Origin: Patescibacteria group bacterium
Lineage (GTDB): Bacteria; Patescibacteriota; Minisyncoccia; Phycocordibacterales; PALSA-1337
NCBI GenBank assembly: GCA_038064415.1
Contig: JBBTTD010000006.1
Location: 1-52,919 of the forward strand
DNA: 52,919 nt
Direction: 5' to 3'
Part shown: positions 6,609 through 40,699 of the stretch, piece after piece
How positions within the stretch are numbered: the first letter of the stretch is position 1
Layout of the letters: every line of letters begins with the position of its first letter
The notes under the pieces: generated by a model
Seen by the model: the letters and a program-made list of their open reading frames with translations, nothing else
Told to the model about the DNA's origin: nothing
Database searches by the model: none
Position numbers and translations under genes: made by a program

Positions 6609-9116
6609 TCATTTCAACTCCCCCCAATTGTTACCAATAGACGCCAAGGCCTTCATAATCACTCCTTTAGTATCTTTTGTGCTCATGACTGATTCCATAA
6701 TTTTTGTAATCTCAACAGCAACTTTTTCAGTTTTATCTTCTCTTATTTCATAGACCAACTCATCATGAACTTGAAGCAGTGGGAAAACATCGTCCTCTAA
6801 TTTCTCGCGACTGATGTACTCGTCAATACGAACCATTGCGAGCTTGATAATATCAGCTCCAGTGCCTTGAATCGGAGAATTTATAGCCATTCGTTCAGCT
6901 GAAGCGCGAATGTATGGAATCTTTGATTTAATTCCTTCAAAATAACGGCGACGCCCAAAGAATGTCTCTGTAAACCCCCGACGGGTCGTTTCTACCTTCA
7001 CTGAATTTAAATATTGCGCCAAAGTGGAAAATGTAGAAAAATAATCGTTATAAAACTTCTGCGCTTCGGCTCGATTGGTTCCGATACTTTGTTGTAACGC
7101 ATTGACTCCCATGCCATAAATAATTCCGAAATTAATAGCTTTGGCGTTGCGGCGCATTTCGGCAGTAACTTTATCTATTGGTACTTTAAACACAAAAGAC
7201 GCCACAGAAGAATGAACATCTTCGCCTTTTTGGAAAATTTCAATCATTTTTTTATCACCAGATATGAACGCGGCGATCCGGAGTTCCACTTGGGAATAAT
7301 CAAAACTACATAATCTGAATCCTTTATCGGCAATAAATGCTCCACGAATAGCACGGCCAAGTTCGGTTTTTATTGGAATGTTTTGTAGATTTGGGTTTTG
7401 TGAAGCCATTCGTCCGGTTGTTGAACCAGAAGAAATCAAATTTGAATGTAATCGATCATTGATATCAAGAAGTGGTGGAATCGCGTCAATATAAGTTGAA
7501 AGTAATTTTGCCAATTCCCGATATTCAAATATCATCGGAACTATCGGGTGCAAGTCACGCAGTTTTTCCAGCTCTGATTCCCTAGTTGAGCGTGCGCCAC
7601 CAGCGGTTTTCTTCATATTCTTGACCGTAAGATTCATTTTATCAAAAAGAATTTCACCAAGTTGCTTTGGTGAATTTATATTAAATTCTACGCCGGCATG
7701 TTTCCAGATTTCCTTTTCCAAACGAGTTAATTCAGTATGGTATGTCTTTGATAGTTTTGAGAGTAATTCCTTATCAATTTTAATTCCATGTTTTTCCATT
7801 TTTTCTATTATTGGAATAAGCGGCAACTCAATGTCTTCATAGACTTTTCTGAGTCCTCTTTTATCAAGTTCAGTAAATATTACTCTTTTTGCTTCTTCAA
7901 ATTTATCTGTATTGGCGAAATTGAGGATATCTTCCAGTGTTGGATTAGTTAAATTTGAATTTACAAGCCATAATGCAAGAGCGGTTTTTTGAGATTCATC
8001 CGCAAGGTCGTCTTTTCTCAACATCGCCTGACTCGGTAAACTTAATAGTTGATTTCGCGACATCTGCGAAGAGAGTTCAGTATCATTGTTCCTTTCGCTA
8101 TTGGACATGGGTATATTATTTCCAACCACTTTCTGCAACCTCTGAACTAAAGTTCTAAATTCCAATTCACTCCAAAGTTGGGAAATTTTTTTAATATCTA
8201 GATTTTCCCTGAAAGTTTTCTCCGGTAAGACGAATGTTATCGGCGCGTCTCTGCGTATTGTCGCCAACATTTTACTGAATTCCGCTTCTTCTTTGTTATC
8301 TTTTAATAATTGGATAATTCTGGGGGTGATCCCAGTTTTTTTGAACTTTTCTTCATTCCCCGCCTCCAATTCTTCATATATTTTTTCAATGGATCCAAAG
8401 TTTGTGATCAAAGTCGTGGCGGTTTTTTCACCGACGCCTTTTATGCCGACAATATTGTCAGACGGATCGCCACGCAATCCCTTATAATCAGCCATAAGCT
8501 CTGGTCCAAAACCAAAACGATCGTAAACTGCTTTTTCATTATAGATAATTGTGTCTTTGATTCCCTTTTTAAAGGTATAGACCTTAACTTCGTCGCCTTG
8601 GACCAGTTGTAATGTGTCCATATCTCCCGAAGCGATGATTATTTCCGTATCTTTTTTTGGTTTTGGTTTTTTGGTTTTTAGTTTGTCTAGGATTTCGGGT
8701 TTAGAATTTTGTATTTTTCCCTTTATCTGTTCCACTATCGTCCCCAACATGTCATCCGCCTCAAATCCTTCCTTGTCATATATTGGGATATTCAAAGCAT
8801 GAAAAATATCTCTAGACCTTATCAATTGTTTGATCAGATCGTCTTCAATTTCTTTTCTTTGAGCTTTATATTCTTTGTAAGCTTTGTGGCGATGGGTTGG
8901 ACCTTTGACATCATAGCAAGCAACCACATAGTCAGGTTTTAAGTCCTCAATAATCTTAATTAACATTGAAGAAAGACCATACAAAGCTCCGGTTGGTTCA
9001 CCTTTGGCGGTAGAAAAATCCGGTAAGGCGTGGTAAGCGCGATGGAGAATAGCGTGTGAATCCAAAAGAATAAGTCTCTTTGGTGTAGTATTTTCTTGTT
9101 TTTTCTTTACCGCCAT
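6609..9116 (-). CDS. polA: DNA polymerase I (5'-3' exonuclease plus polymerase; 3'-5' exonuclease vestigial), with two in-frame insertions
   Basis: LDSHAILHRAYHA, EADD, GDMD, GDPSDNI, TGRMASQNPNLQNIP, DYSQVELR, AKAINFGIIYG, QVHDEL. Start 9116 (MAVKK) preferred over 9131. Confidence 0.95.
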   Translation of the reverse strand: MAVKKKQENTTPKRLILLDSHAILHRAYHALPDFSTAKGEPTGALYGLSSMLIKIIEDLKPDYVVACYDVKGPTHRHKAYKEYKAQRKEIEDDLIKQLIRSRDIFHALNIPIYDKEGFEADDMLGTIVEQIKGKIQNSKPEILDKLKTKKPKPKKDTEIIIASGDMDTLQLVQGDEVKVYTFKKGIKDTIIYNEKAVYDRFGFGPELMADYKGLRGDPSDNIVGIKGVGEKTATTLITNFGSIEKIYEELEAGNEEKFKKTGITPRIIQLLKDNKEEAEFSKMLATIRRDAPITFVLPEKTFRENLDIKKISQLWSELEFRTLVQRLQKVVGNNIPMSNSERNNDTELSSQMSRNQLLSLPSQAMLRKDDLADESQKTALALWLVNSNLTNPTLEDILNFANTDKFEEAKRVIFTELDKRGLRKVYEDIELPLIPIIEKMEKHGIKIDKELLSKLSKTYHTELTRLEKEIWKHAGVEFNINSPKQLGEILFDKMNLTVKNMKKTAGGARSTRESELEKLRDLHPIVPMIFEYRELAKLLSTYIDAIPPLLDINDRLHSNLISSGSTTGRMASQNPNLQNIPIKTELGRAIRGAFIADKGFRLCSFDYSQVELRIAAFISGDKKMIEIFQKGEDVHSSVASFVFKVPIDKVTAEMRRNAKAINFGIIYGMGVNALQQSIGTNRAEAQKFYNDYFSTFSTLAQYLNSVKVETTRRGFTETFFGRRRYFEGIKSKIPYIRASAERMAINSPIQGTGADIIKLAMVRIDEYISREKLEDDVFPLLQVHDELVYEIREDKTEKVAVEITKIMESVMSTKDTKGVIMKALASIGNNWGELK
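8002..8079 (-). repeat. Decayed copy of the CGGAG-core palindromic element, in frame within polA
   Basis: Minus strand TGAACTCTCTTCGCAG-atgtcg-N31-cgatgt-TGAG-AAAAGA-CGACCTTGC matches the cores at 37551-37658 and 39295-39404. Confidence 0.8.
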
Positions 9117-9176
9117 ATAATCATTGTACATTATTTATAAGAAGTTATTCACAACTAAAATAGAAAACGGGCTAAG

Positions 9177-15167: not shown

Positions 15168-15298
15168 CATATCCCCGCACTACATAATACTTCTTTGAAG
15201 CATTGCCGGAGGCCTAAACAGATATTCATCATTCTTTAGCCATTGATTTTAGACAACAGGCGTCGCTTCAAAGAAGTATTATGTAGTGCGGGGATATG
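15168..15298 (+). repeat. Palindromic element A: perfect 34-bp inverted arms around a CGGAG...CGT core
   Basis: 15168-15201 is the exact reverse complement of 15265-15298; CGGAG at 15207, CGT at 15261. Confidence 0.9.
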
Positions 15299-21946: not shown

Positions 21947-22696
21947 ATGTATCACGAATATATATTTCGCCCTCTCTACAATGGCCTCGTTGGTATTATG
22001 GATATTATTCCATGGGTTGATGTTGGTGTTGCTGTCGTTATTTTTACCATTATTGTCAAACTTATCCTATTTCCCCTATCAAAAGCGTCACTGTTGACCC
22101 AAGTTCGCATGAAGGAAATTGAGCCGGAGGCAAACAAAATTAAAGCCCAATACGCGTCCAATAAACAAACACAGGCCCTGAAAATCATGGAGCTTTACAA
22201 AGAGAAGAGAATCAAACCATTTTCTGGTGTTTTACTTCTTTTTATTCAACTTCCCATCCTTTTCGCTCTTATTTCGGTGTTTTATAAAATTATTCCAACC
22301 ATTGATGTCGCCCAACTTTATAGTTTTATAGCTGTTCCCAACAACCCATCTTTTCATTTTCTTGGACTTATTGATTTGAGTCAAAAAAGTTTTATTCTCT
22401 CACTAGCGACGGCAGTAATTCAATTTTTGCAAATGCATTTTTCACCAGCCATGCGCCAACAAAAACTCGCCAGCAACCAACCCCAAACAAACCCAGCCGA
22501 CTTTGCTTCACAACTATCTGGCTCCATGACAAAACAAATGATGTACTTACTGCCCATACTTGCTTTTGCCTCAACATATTGGATTATTCCAGCAACGTTT
22601 CCTCAGGCGGCGTCAATCATAGCTATTTATTGGTCAGTTAGTACTTTATTTACATTAGTGCAAGAGCTTTATATTAGAAAGAGACACTTAAAGTAA
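21947..22696 (+). CDS. yidC: YidC/Oxa1 membrane protein insertase (short form)
   Basis: FT..VKLIL.PL, LYKE..IKPF.G.L...IQLPI, IYW..S..F...QE motifs. Confidence 0.92.
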   Translation: MYHEYIFRPLYNGLVGIMDIIPWVDVGVAVVIFTIIVKLILFPLSKASLLTQVRMKEIEPEANKIKAQYASNKQTQALKIMELYKEKRIKPFSGVLLLFIQLPILFALISVFYKIIPTIDVAQLYSFIAVPNNPSFHFLGLIDLSQKSFILSLATAVIQFLQMHFSPAMRQQKLASNQPQTNPADFASQLSGSMTKQMMYLLPILAFASTYWIIPATFPQAASIIAIYWSVSTLFTLVQELYIRKRHLK

Positions 22697-22813
22697 CAAG
22701 AAACATGTGTAGTTCGGATACGTTGCGGAGCGCGACGGCGCGAGCATAGGAATTTTTCAGCAGAAAAATATCCGTGTATCCGAACTACACATGTTTCTTG
22801 TTACTTTAAGTGT
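22684..22813 (+). repeat. Palindromic element B: perfect 38-bp inverted arms around a CGGAG/CGAG/CGT core, between convergent genes
   Basis: 22684-22721 is the exact reverse complement of 22776-22813; the left arm includes the yidC stop codon. Confidence 0.9.
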
Positions 22814-37118: not shown

Positions 37119-39224
37119 TTAAAAATCAATAAATATCGCTTTCACGCCCGTTGGTTTTTCTGGAATACCCTCATCAAGTAACTTACTGTCTATGTCGGCA
37201 ATAAACTCTGAAGGGGTATTGATTCTTTTAGTTCCATATATTGTGCGAATAAGAGTATGACTCAAATGTACCTTCTTTTTAGCGCGAGTCAATGCTACAT
37301 AAAAAAGACGACGCTCTTCTTCCGCTTCCGATCCACTCGTTTCTTCATCGTCAGAGTGTTTGAACGGAAAAAGTTCCTGTTCCATTCCAGCGATAAAGAC
37401 ATGATCAAACTCCAGTCCTTTTGACGCATGAACTGTCATTAGTTTTACCGCATCCTCGTCTTTTTGTAGGTCATCTTGGTCTGTGGCTAAGGCGGCGTTT
37501 TCCAGGAATTTTTCTATTCCCGAAACGCCCAACTTTACAGATAAGAGTTCTGAACCCTCTTCGGAGCGCCGCTGGATTGCGTATTCATTTACTCCGAATG
37601 GCGGCGCGAGAAAAGACGGCTTTGCGAGCGATTCTGTTGTGCGAGCAAAGCCGATCGTGGGTGAAGAACTCTTATCTGTAAAGTTGGGCGTTTCGGATAT
37701 TGTAAGATCATCATACTGAGTCGCGACGGAAACTAATTCACGAATATTAAGTAGTCGCTCTAAATCTTCTGAATCGCCATCCAAAAGAAGCTTTTCTATT
37801 CCTGTTTCCTGAATAACAAATTTAATTGCTTCTGATGGCTTTTTTTCCATTATTTCATGTTGGATATCATCAAGTAATTTCCAAAAACCATCAATCTTCA
37901 ACCTCATGACTGGCGGGATCAAGTCTGGTCTGGCCGACATTATTTTGGCAATCGTGGCTTTACCTATCCCACGGATCGGAACATTGATTATCCTGCCAAT
38001 ATCACCCCAAGACTCTCTATTTAACGACGCCCTAATGTATGAAAGGACATCCTTAACCTCTTTCCTCTCAAAAAACCTAACTCCAACTAATTGGTAGGGT
38101 ATGTTTTTTTTAATGAATGCCTCTTCAATAACTCGTGATTGAAAATTAGTTCTATACAATACGGCAATATTTCTAGCTGATGTGCCACTTTCAATTAGTG
38201 ATCTGGCAGAATCGGCGATATTTCTAGCCTCATCTAGTTCTGTGTACGCGGCATTCAGGACAATCTTCTCCCCTTGAGCATTATCTGTGTGTAGAGTTTT
38301 CTTTTTTCGCAAATTATTCTTTTCTATGATGCTGTTTGCTGCGGCTAAAATTGTTTTTGTTGAACGATAATTTTTTTCTAAAGCGATCACTGTTGTGTTT
38401 GGGTAATCTTTTTCAAAGTTAAGAATATTTTCGATTGTCGCGCCGCGCCAGCTGTAGATATTCTGGTCAGCGTCGCCGACTACGCAAATATTCCTATGCG
38501 ATTCCGCTAAATATTTTGTTATTTTATATTGCACTCTATTTGTGTCTTGATATTCATCAACATGAATGTATTTCCAGATTGATTGGTAGCGTTTGCGAAC
38601 CGTTTCATTTTTCTCCAAAATATTCATGGTCTTTAAGAGCAGGTCGTCAAAATCCAAAGCTTTTTCTTTGGCTAAAATCGCGTCGTATTTTCTCCAGACA
38701 CTGGCGATTATTCCTTGGATATGATTTTTTGCCTCATCTGAATATTCTGAATGTCCGATCGCATTCCCCTTTGCGCGCGAAATCAAATTGAGGATCATTC
38801 CTGGTTCGTATTGTTCCGTGTTTATTGAAAGTTCCTCCATGGCTTGTTTTATTGCTTTTTTAGAATCTGATCGGTCAAAAATTGTGAAATGTCTGGTTAG
38901 TCCGACCAATTGAGTATTTTCTTTGATGATATGTACTCCAAGCGCGTGAAATGTGCTTAAAAACGGCCGTTCACTGATTGAAATAGGAATATTCAAGCTT
39001 TCATCCTCGGATATTAATGTTTCTACCCGTTCACGCATCTCTTTTGCCGCCTTATTTGTGAAAGTTATTGCCAAAATTTCATGTGGAGCCACGCCCTTTT
39101 TAATTAGATTGATGATTCTATGAGTTATTACCCTAGTTTTACCAGTTCCCGCTCCAGCGATAATAAGAAGTGGACCTTCAGTGGTTTCCACTGCGCGTTG
39201 TTGGGCTTCATTGAGGGTTGTCAT
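37119..39224 (-). CDS. pcrA: UvrD/PcrA ATP-dependent DNA helicase with a 59-codon element insertion
   Basis: AGAGTGKT, FTNKAA.EM, VDEYQDTN, VGDADQ.IY.WRGA, NYRS, MT.HASKGLEF, EERRLFYVA.TRA. Start 39224. Confidence 0.96.
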   Translation of the reverse strand: MTTLNEAQQRAVETTEGPLLIIAGAGTGKTRVITHRIINLIKKGVAPHEILAITFTNKAAKEMRERVETLISEDESLNIPISISERPFLSTFHALGVHIIKENTQLVGLTRHFTIFDRSDSKKAIKQAMEELSINTEQYEPGMILNLISRAKGNAIGHSEYSDEAKNHIQGIIASVWRKYDAILAKEKALDFDDLLLKTMNILEKNETVRKRYQSIWKYIHVDEYQDTNRVQYKITKYLAESHRNICVVGDADQNIYSWRGATIENILNFEKDYPNTTVIALEKNYRSTKTILAAANSIIEKNNLRKKKTLHTDNAQGEKIVLNAAYTELDEARNIADSARSLIESGTSARNIAVLYRTNFQSRVIEEAFIKKNIPYQLVGVRFFERKEVKDVLSYIRASLNRESWGDIGRIINVPIRGIGKATIAKIMSARPDLIPPVMRLKIDGFWKLLDDIQHEIMEKKPSEAIKFVIQETGIEKLLLDGDSEDLERLLNIRELVSVATQYDDLTISETPNFTDKSSSPTIGFARTTESLAKPSFLAPPFGVNEYAIQRRSEEGSELLSVKLGVSGIEKFLENAALATDQDDLQKDEDAVKLMTVHASKGLEFDHVFIAGMEQELFPFKHSDDEETSGSEAEEERRLFYVALTRAKKKVHLSHTLIRTIYGTKRINTPSEFIADIDSKLLDEGIPEKPTGVKAIFIDF
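37520..37696 (+). mobile_element. Palindromic element C (177 bp, perfect 32-bp arms) inserted in frame in pcrA
   Basis: 37520-37551 is the exact reverse complement of 37665-37696; 177 is divisible by 3; core matches element D. Mobility is inferred. Confidence 0.85.
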
Positions 39225-39271
39225 GCGGGTTAGTTTAACACATTGAAATGAATCGTTTTTGATTATGGTTA

Positions 39272-39434
39272 GGTGGGGTGGAGACAATTCCCCTTGAACC
39301 CTCTTCGGAGGCGTCGGGTAACTATAGTTTAACTATAAGATGTACACGATGCCGAGAAAAGAAAACTCTGCGAGCTTTTCTGTAATGCGAGCAGAGTTTA
39401 TCGTGGGTTCAGGGGGAATTGTCTCCACCCCACC
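39272..39434 (+). repeat. Palindromic element D (30-bp arms, 29/30) upstream of pcrA
   Basis: 39272-39301 pairs with 39405-39434 with one T-G; core in the same register as C. Confidence 0.9.
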
Positions 39435-39631
39435 ACACCATTTCCCAACATTCATTGACATTACAGCAAGTATTGTGACTGTGTATATCTTTCATTGACA
39501 ACACAACTCCACCTGCTACCCTTAATACATACCCACAGAGGTATTTACGGTGATATGGCTTTACAGAGCCATTTATTTATTAAAGGGTATAACACGGCGA
39601 GGAAGCAAAACAGTTATGATTGATTTGCAGG

Positions 39632-40699
39632 ATGGCAACAAATGTTATGCAATTAAATACAAAATATACAAAAAAATATTCTTCTTTTTCAAAGCGTCTA
39701 ACTACAGGCACCGCTATTTTTGCCGTGTCTATTGGTTCCATGATTATTTACGCAGGGACTGCTAACGCCGGTCTTATTTCTTATATTACTTCATTTTTAA
39801 GCGGTGAACAGGCTTCAGCAAAAATCATTCAAAATCCAATTGGGTCTAGTTCACAAACGATCGCTTTGCTTCAGGCCGCGACAAGCTATAATCCAAGCCC
39901 AGAACAACCATCAGGTATTTCTCCAATTGTTGGAAATGTTTTAATCGCGGATATGGCTTTATCAGAAACAAGTATTGATTCTGATACCTTTAGTACTCAA
40001 ATTAGTTCATATATTGTTCGTGAAGGAGACACTGTTTCTGGTATTGCCAAAATGTTTGGAGTATCAGTAAATACAATATTATGGGCAAATAACATCGGTC
40101 GTGCTTCGGCGCTTCGTGCGGGACAGACACTCATCATTCTTCCTATTACTGGTATCAATTACACCATCAAAAAGGGAGATACCATTAAAGGTATTGCCCT
40201 TCAATACAAAACCGATTTCAATGAAATCATTCAGTACAATGATTTGTCGTTAGATTCAACCTTGATTGCCGGCCAAACCATTATTATTCCTGATGCAGAA
40301 CAAACATCAAATCAAACCAAACCTGAAGCTAGTGGCCCAAGTTACAAAGGCTACTATATTCGCCCTATTATTGGTGGCACAAAGACACAAGGTCTTCATG
40401 GAAATAATGGCGTTGATTTAGCTTCCTATCCCGGAACCCCTATTTATGCTTCTGCTGCCGGCACAGTAATTTTAAGCTCAAATGGGGGATGGAATGGTGG
40501 TTATGGAAATTTGGTGATCATTTCTCATAACAATAGAACTCAAACCGTATATGCCCACAATTCCAGAAATCTTGTGTCAGTTGGTCAGTATGTAGATCAA
40601 GGGCAAAAAATCGCGGTTATGGGTGCCACTGGAAAAGTTGCTGGGATTACGGGCGTGCATTTACATTTTGAGATCCGTGGAGCCAGAAATCCATTTTAG
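39632..40699 (+). CDS. LysM-domain M23 family metallopeptidase
   Basis: Two LysM repeats (YIVREGDT..GIA.MFGVS..TI.WAN; YTIKKGDT), H..NGVD, YGNLV, YAH, HLHFE. Start 39632 or 39647. Confidence 0.9.
   Translation: MATNVMQLNTKYTKKYSSFSKRLTTGTAIFAVSIGSMIIYAGTANAGLISYITSFLSGEQASAKIIQNPIGSSSQTIALLQAATSYNPSPEQPSGISPIVGNVLIADMALSETSIDSDTFSTQISSYIVREGDTVSGIAKMFGVSVNTILWANNIGRASALRAGQTLIILPITGINYTIKKGDTIKGIALQYKTDFNEIIQYNDLSLDSTLIAGQTIIIPDAEQTSNQTKPEASGPSYKGYYIRPIIGGTKTQGLHGNNGVDLASYPGTPIYASAAGTVILSSNGGWNGGYGNLVIISHNNRTQTVYAHNSRNLVSVGQYVDQGQKIAVMGATGKVAGITGVHLHFEIRGARNPF

Follow-up and report, generated by a model that had tools for sequence, protein, structure and literature searches.

A dispersed, structured palindromic repeat family of Patescibacteria with a three-way junction fold on one strand

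Two palindromic elements, here called C and D, lie in and beside a pcrA/uvrD-type helicase gene in a 52,919-nucleotide stretch of DNA (the window; contig JBBTTD010000006.1 of the Patescibacteria group bacterium assembly GCA_038064415.1). They are two diverged copies of a dispersed, structured palindromic repeat family of Patescibacteria (the candidate phyla radiation, CPR). With 33 copies beyond C and D, found in Patescibacteria genomes and metagenomes, 35 were analysed in all. The family fold is a three-way junction, and only one strand, the one carrying CGGAG, is constrained to form it. We suggest, at a probability of roughly 0.55, that the family is a non-autonomous selfish repeat, similar in habit to the Rickettsia palindromic elements (RPEs), that works as a folded single strand, with DNA somewhat likelier than RNA.

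The region 37300-39700 of the window was read directly. C and D have the same plan, a long perfect inverted repeat around a core, and in an alignment the cores are identical in TGAACCCTCTTCGGAG, CGAGAAAAGA, GCGAGC-N11-GCGAGC (with TTCTGT in the loop) and ATCGTGGGT, while the intervening sequence differs. The identical linkers had been noticed in an earlier, sequence-only reading of this DNA, and each of the motifs is present in the window just twice, or at a frequency well beyond chance. As single strands C and D are predicted to fold at -96.8 and -98.2 kcal/mol (z about -12) into a long closing stem and two inner hairpins. The minus strands fold at -89.5 and -87.1 kcal/mol, the plus strand being more stable by 7-11 kcal/mol, and all G-T pairs of the two elements are on the plus strand, in agreement with the earlier statement that wobble pairs work on the CGGAG strand only. 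The position given there for D, about 48 nt upstream of pcrA, is upheld: D starts 47 nt from the pcrA ATG (39224), 1.6 kb from C, in a region divergent with a LysM/M23 peptidase gene.

The same reading had counted about ten compensatory pair changes between C and D, and a structure-aware alignment reproduced this count exactly. In stem 1, CGCCGC/GCGGCG of C stands against GCGTCG/CGATGC of D, so that six pairs are changed on both sides and all stay paired, one of them as G-T in D. In stem 2, CGGCTTTGC/GCAAAGCCG of C corresponds to AAACTCTGC/GCAGAGTTT of D, with four pairs changed on both sides and pairing kept; six more pairs are changed on both sides in the closing stem. Ten doubly changed pairs would all stay paired by chance with p about 5e-5 (6/16 per pair, counting Watson-Crick or G-T). 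An alternative, equally legitimate register, with an extra G-C at the base of D stem 1, gives fewer double changes in that stem, and ten independent events is therefore an upper bound. In addition, several “compensatory” changes can arise in one replication template-switching event (PMC8794818), so the ten changes need not represent ten selected steps.

Further copies were sought with patterns built from linker motifs only in genome contigs, and with a different pair of linker motifs in metagenome contigs. The first scan gave eight true copies, all from Patescibacteria (Paceibacterota, Taylorbacteria and one contig labelled Saccharibacteria), together with three chance matches; the second gave 22 more, for the most part from samples of groundwater and the like. 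Another five turned up at loci retrieved by way of PcrA protein homologues, without any nucleotide criterion. Copies from each scan also carry the motifs outside that scan's pattern, and the protein-ascertained copies have all linker motifs with at most one change each. The linker conservation is thus not a search artefact. Pattern matches in Clostridia, Pseudomonadales, Rhodospirillales and human-gut contigs lacked the stems and were discarded, and viral contigs yielded no copy, their single pattern match (20 bits, without stems) being due to chance. The core measures about 111-117 nt, and with its arms an element reaches about 160-200 nt. When the covariance models of Rfam 15 were run on the window, only tRNAs passed the gathering cutoff; even at E up to 10 no family or ribozyme was matched, the best score on C being 19.5 bits to an unrelated small RNA model with a 72-bit cutoff. 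A literature search found no paper on such elements in Patescibacteria, and the repeat family is apparently undescribed.

The fold consists of a long closing stem (P1), two covarying hairpins and near-invariant junction strands, UCUUCG(G/C)A, GAGAAAA and GU. The outer arms of P1 are copy-specific, and its inner part, CUGAACCC/GGGUGAAG, contains a tandem G-A in most copies. Likewise, most copies have the GCGAGC/GCGAGC tandem G-A in stem 2, the others having ordinary Watson-Crick pairs instead, and the loop of this stem keeps TTC. Over the 35 copies, identity is 0.96 in the junction strands and 0.36 in the stem-1 loop. In a plain MAFFT alignment of 30 copies, RNAalifold found double changes in 17 of 29 pairs, in support of stem 2 and the closing stem. 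Stem 1 was misaligned there between a short and a long sub-type, and the copies were realigned with a covariance model; in this alignment 86.5% of cells pair, 26 of the 38 modelled pairs show double changes, and the covariation score is 0.579, as against 0.171±0.011 in shuffles and 0.11-0.16 with slid partners. Because a model-based alignment is fitted to the structure, we also made an alignment-free test, which takes the eight (stem 1) or nine (stem 2) bases beside the invariant linkers and compares pairing within a copy to pairing across copies. Among 25-26 distinct strand sequences, own strands pair at 7.37 of 8 positions in stem 1 and 8.60 of 9 in stem 2, and strands of different copies at 4.41 and 6.40, respectively. 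Stem positions varying independently in more copies would have spoken against selection on the fold; in the 33 additional copies pairing is retained. A CUC-UUCG-GAG hairpin, which the sequence suggests, is not conserved: about half of the copies have C in place of the closing G (CAG instead of GAG), and a UUCG tetraloop hairpin was rejected.

The constraint to fold applies to one strand. Among the modelled pairs of the 35 copies, G-U outnumbers A-C by 50 to 5, and the excess is found in every orientation class (25:3 in copies sense to their host gene, 16:1 in antisense copies, 9:1 in intergenic ones). Over the full arms the ratio is 54:6, and about 8% of the pairs there are G-U. Folding energies favour the CGGAG strand in 33 of 35 copies when RNA parameters are used, and in 32 of 35 with DNA parameters. 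Given this asymmetry in wobble pairs and stability, a cruciform, or any reading in which both strands act together, does not fit. The covariation, the 96% junction identity and the G-U excess together support the earlier proposal of selection on a strand-specific structure with short invariant single-stranded motifs.

Of the 35 copies, 22 lie in long open frames (12 sense, 10 antisense) and 13 are intergenic, and the same nucleotides are conserved in all three groups. Host frames are open through the element in all 22 genic copies, and of 19 genic copies measured from CCC to GGGTNNNG, 18 have a core of 112 or 115 nt, compared to 113-117 nt in intergenic ones. Judged from the reading frames, genic copies are translated in both orientations. 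They occupy surface loops of large housekeeping proteins, mostly DNA-repair enzymes. The pcrA frame, for example, continues straight through the antisense element C, and the window's PcrA has a 58-residue insert there; insert-free PcrA homologues (644 aa) read QYDHLPPEE-GIE at this point, which aligns just before residue 531 of Geobacillus PcrA (1PJR). The encoded peptides, SEPSSE...AKPIVGEE from sense copies and SSPTIG...RSEEGSE from antisense ones, are unrelated to each other and neither matches a Pfam family. Selection at the protein level therefore cannot explain the nucleotide conservation.

Ten host gene families were tallied (loci L004, L006, L007, L027, L032, L042, L051, L056, L058 and window 6609-9131): pcrA/uvrD, polA, a Pif1-like helicase gene, recG, uvrA, uvrB, recO, secA, secD and argS. 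The first seven of these encode DNA-repair or recombination enzymes, by rough estimate a share far above that of such genes in a small genome. This bias may reflect long, dispensable, weakly expressed genes with tolerant loops. A “repair regulon” is not supported, the neighbours of the intergenic copies being unrelated (folD, Mur ligase, pth, signal peptidase, sigma factor, dnaA). The copy next to dnaA (L035:11047-11182) is on a 761-kb groundwater contig; because it lies directly upstream of dnaA in a divergent region, it probably adjoins the replication origin.

The arms vary from about 12 to 44 bp across copies, and those in the window genome are perfect over 30-38 bp. Outer arms are entirely different between copies, and the inner 10-18 bp are common within sub-lineages only. 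In the polA, uvrA and uvrB copies of one metagenome, for instance, the inner arm is shared (ATATGGYTYCC) and the outer arms are locus-specific, yet still complementary, which indicates that at least the outer arm is made locally. Replication template switching is known to homogenise inverted-repeat arms, to make multi-base compensatory changes and to invert a spacer in place (PMC8794818, PMC8604942). A change of this type is found in the pcrA copy, where three relatives have in common a 5-nt arm mismatch block, TGAAG opposite CGGAG, and the window has perfectly paired CTTTA/TAAAG. Overwriting of one whole arm of C was rejected, since the identities of the arms to the relatives are alike (0.62 and 0.65) and only the 5-nt block supports a switch. 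Template switching would explain in a simple way why the arms are perfect, why one site has two orientations and how part of the “compensatory” pattern arose, but it leaves the invariant junctions, the retained G-A pairs and the one-strand G-U bias unexplained.

What occupies a shared site differs between relatives. The PcrA loop holds antisense copies in the window and four relatives, sense copies in two relatives, and elsewhere a copy with part of it deleted, remnants (“SEP|IVGE”, for example) or, in the 644-aa form, nothing. This loop is a general insertion hot spot in the clade. The homologues P0008, P0027, P0029 and P0032 have other, unrelated inserts of 30-80 residues in it. The polA loop before ALWLVNSN has antisense, sense and antisense copies of three core lineages, from three genomes, and in the window a decayed copy (7963-8089) stands at the same place; the Pif1 site has one sense and one antisense copy. 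Two relatives carry family members at the D site (5' of pcrA). In a third (L063:2122-2501) this position is taken by an unrelated palindromic element whose arms, GAACCAGCGACAACACTCTTTTTGATTACC and its complement, are 30 bp long and whose core, of about 100 nt, is a different one, which suggests that the site attracts or exchanges different hairpin families. A tree of the cores places all pcrA copies, whichever their orientation, in a single clade (99/99) along with polA, Pif1 and secA copies; locus-specific clustering is poorly resolved inside this main clade, and the tree does not separate vertical descent from re-insertion. Synonymous four-fold sites of the pcrA host genes are saturated (0.30-0.38 identical), from which it follows that intact cores have long persisted or been renewed, as others decayed. 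No Logan contig skips C or D. De Bruijn contigs of public runs (X1, X4, X6) break at both 31-bp perfect arms of C, with the 173-nt middle (37522-37694) given either way round, so the orientation of C is unreadable from these contigs, and assembly ambiguity at the arms could hide or mimic real flipping of the core.

These properties are, in our opinion, best accommodated by an RPE-like selfish repeat. The folded single strand would be recognised through its junction nucleotides by a factor encoded elsewhere, and the repeat would spread to, or be refreshed at, a limited set of permissive sites, where resident copies would then decay, be deleted or be replaced. Template switching inside the palindrome probably helps to keep stems and arms complementary and to flip the core in place. 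Analogy with IS200/IS605 ends, repetitive extragenic palindromes (REPs) and attC sites puts DNA somewhat ahead of RNA as the putative acting molecule, and in favour of DNA the constraint is equal in sense, antisense and intergenic copies, the element carries no promoter, and correction of the arms needs DNA hairpins. Several observations weigh against the selfish-repeat reading as a whole. A G-U share of about 8% of arm pairs, tenfold over A-C, looks more like RNA than DNA thermodynamics. Local GC skew, a proxy for the replication strand, is uninformative on orientation (10 of 30 positive), and 6 of the 7 intergenic copies that lie between co-directional genes, or just 3' of a gene, are sense to the operon. 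Retention of cores at the same site across saturated divergence is unlike a decaying selfish repeat unless it re-invades or is refreshed, and a host function would fit this retention equally well. Eight metagenome runs showed no presence/absence polymorphism of C or D, bearing in mind that contigs cannot show rare empty sites. No direct repeat indicating target-site duplication flanks D, the one element considered in this respect; no transposase, reverse transcriptase, integrase or other mobilising gene lies beside the copies at the annotated loci; and no split, gene-carrying “autonomous” version is present in the 532 kb examined.

Some of these points also speak for a functional RNA transcribed from the CGGAG strand, be it a noncoding RNA, a cis-regulatory module, a processing signal or a ribozyme, and we regard such an RNA as possible but clearly the less probable choice. 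The junction would then serve as its protein-binding or catalytic centre, and the long stem as a handle for processing or stability; in a variant of this idea, the element would be mobile through an RNA intermediate. The strong covariation and the invariant strands of the three-way junction, and the tandem G-A motifs in two helices, are in keeping with RNA, as are the abundant G-U pairs, the sense bias of the intergenic copies and the long-kept core. It is harder to reconcile with RNA that 10 of the 22 genic copies are antisense to the host gene and yet have the same G-U bias, that copies sit in frame within essential genes and decay freely in some lineages, and that they match no Rfam family. 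Nor is there a terminator tail, a conserved UUCG hairpin or, because the arms are copy-specific, a conserved promoter inside the element or beside it. Among public RNA runs, none had the window region or a copy on a high-coverage contig, a result that bears neither way. Mutation alone, with template switching keeping the stems of inert DNA complementary and no selection on any folded molecule, appears improbable: it readily yields perfect arms such as those of the window genome, the window's perfect pairing at the relatives' mismatch block and both orientations at one site (PMC8794818, PMC8604942), but near-invariant unpaired junctions beside neutral-looking loops at saturated divergence are beyond it, as is the tenfold predominance (10:1) of G-U to A-C that one strand shows in every orientation class, and switching would erase the non-Watson-Crick tandem G-A pairs that are retained. 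We give still less credit to a peptide insert selected as a loop module of repair enzymes, with pairing incidental. The fixed length class and open frames of genic copies, the recurring peptides and the predominance of repair enzymes among the hosts (7 of 10 families) could be so explained; the nucleotides, however, are conserved equally whether sense, antisense or unread (13 intergenic copies), the two orientations give unrelated peptides without Pfam match, and stem covariation alters the amino acids. More speculatively, and we would call this doubtful, the family might be a new kind of mobile or homing element in which the three-way junction is the sole sequence-specific part, the arms are built locally by fold-back or template switching, and the core flips or is replaced at re-usable sites. 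The preference for loops of PcrA, PolA, RecG, UvrA, UvrB, RecO and Pif1 could then be more than tolerance and reflect a link to hairpin-processing enzymes. In a bolder version, the junction would be a putative catalytic or sensor nucleic acid kept for the host.

Table 1. Coordinates of elements C and D, their parts and related features in the window
Feature	Position	Strand	Remarks
Element C, whole (177 nt)	37520..37696	+	In frame, antisense inside pcrA; covariance model match 125.8 bits
C: P1 closing stem, 5' strand	37520..37557	+	Copy-specific arm perfectly paired; inner part CUGAACCC with tandem G-A
C: junction strand J1/2	37558..37565	+	TCTTCGGA, near-invariant in family
C: stem 1 hairpin	37566..37607	+	GCGCCGCTG ... 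TGGCGGCGC, loop variable
C: junction strand J2/3	37608..37614	+	GAGAAAA, invariant
C: stem 2 hairpin	37615..37656	+	GCGAGC/GCGAGC tandem G-A; conserved TTC in loop
C: junction strand J3/1	37657..37658	+	GT, invariant
C: P1 closing stem, 3' strand	37659..37696	+	
Element D, whole (163 nt)	39272..39434	+	Intergenic, pcrA (-) / LysM/M23 peptidase gene (+); model match 121.2 bits
D: P1, 5' strand	39272..39301	+	Watson-Crick pairs in place of tandem G-A
D: J1/2	39302..39309	+	TCTTCGGA
D: stem 1 hairpin	39310..39353	+	GGCGTCG ... CGATGCC, one G-T
D: J2/3	39354..39360	+	GAGAAAA
D: stem 2 hairpin	39361..39402	+	GAAAACTCTGCGAGC ... GCGAGCAGAGTTTATC
D: J3/1	39403..39404	+	GT
D: P1, 3' strand	39405..39434	+	
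pcrA/uvrD-type helicase gene, host of C (701 aa)	37119..39224	-	Insert between QYDD and GIEKF
Decayed family copy inside polA, in frame, sense	7963..8089	-	Model match 35.9 bits, E=1.3e-6

The features of both elements are collected in Table 1. C and D have as neighbours pcrA, a ksgA-type gene of the RrnaAD family (rRNA adenine dimethylase), a Mg-chelatase-like gene and the LysM/M23 peptidase gene. Beyond D there is a weak promoter-like site for pcrA, which, if genuine, would put the complement of D in the pcrA leader. Just 3' of D, the block CCAACATTC(A/C)TTGACATTACAGCAA (window 39449-39500) is kept in L063 and L065 despite the saturated synonymous sites, and is probably the LysM/M23 peptidase gene's promoter, with TTGACA as the -35 element. 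Two other elements on the plus strand of the window, A (15168-15298) and B (22684-22813), have the same plan, with perfect copy-specific arms of 34 and 38 bp, CGGAG close to the 5' arm and CGT close to the 3' arm; the cores are unlike those of C and D. A is intergenic, and B, with a miniature three-way junction fold, exactly fills the gap between two convergent genes. Neither is detected by the C/D covariance model, and they represent a different sub-family.

Patescibacteria have tiny genomes with little room for junk, yet hairpins of 160-200 nt are present in essential and repair genes across many lineages, and their three-way junction has been kept precisely on one strand through saturating synonymous divergence. 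If the family is a selfish element, the RPE phenomenon, in which in-frame palindromic parasites reshape proteins, extends from Rickettsia to a second, very large reduced group, and a conserved interior with self-made arms is an architecture not seen in REPs or in MITEs (transposable elements of miniature size with inverted repeats). If it is instead a functional RNA or single-stranded DNA signal, the 35 covarying examples make up a new structured motif. Either way, it is a natural system in which to see how nucleic-acid structure is maintained jointly by template switching and selection. For genome annotation, such inserts inflate and diversify CPR housekeeping proteins.

Among known systems, the fold of attC sites and IS200/IS605 ends is the basis of their function: it forms on one strand of DNA, structure is conserved above stem sequence, and unpaired or extrahelical bases give specificity. 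The CPR repeat resembles them in being constrained on one strand only. Both systems adjoin an integrase or transposase or sit in cassette arrays, and have conserved boxes of their own; no neighbouring enzyme, cassette array or such boxes were found for the CPR repeat. It differs from retron msr-msd in that no reverse-transcriptase gene is adjacent to C, D or any annotated copy. Hairpins shaped by template switching show arm homogenisation, multi-base compensatory changes and in-place spacer inversion that match the arms and the pcrA, polA and Pif1 sites, but here one deals with a mutational process rather than an element, and the invariant junctions and the one-strand G-U bias are not accounted for.

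Bacterial MITEs (Correia, ERIC, RUP, BOX and others) have conserved terminal inverted repeats that match a parent insertion sequence and are flanked by target duplications (PMC10969869, PMC3184786). Like the CPR repeat, they are small, non-autonomous and intergenic or sometimes in frame in genes; the CPR repeat, in contrast, has copy-specific termini, a conserved interior and no duplication at D. REPs and REPINs are simple hairpins of 20-40 nt with a terminal tetranucleotide tag (GTAG or CGTC), found beside genes for RAYT (TnpA-REP) transposases (PMC3733652). They too are dispersed hairpins thought to act as folded single-stranded DNA of one strand, with covarying stems and some intragenic copies, whereas the CPR repeat is a 110-nt three-way junction without a terminal GTAG tag, and no RAYT (Y1 transposase) gene occurs among the annotated neighbours of copies at the loci examined. 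The closest parallel is with RPE-1 to RPE-10 of Rickettsia (Ogata et al. 2000, summarised in PMC10969869), palindromic repeats, about 100-150 bp long, for which a stable hairpin is predicted, very often in frame in housekeeping genes and translated as extra loops, whose mobilising enzyme is unknown (PMC10969869). The CPR repeat differs from them in conserving an internal three-way junction with invariant strands between copy-specific outer arms, in being constrained on one strand, in occurring in both orientations per site and in its bias to DNA-repair hosts. It comes from a different phylum, and we claim no sequence relation. The likeness is one in the way of working: both are palindromic, stably folding repeats, dispersed in reduced genomes and inserted in frame into unrelated housekeeping genes, to which they add a recurring peptide.

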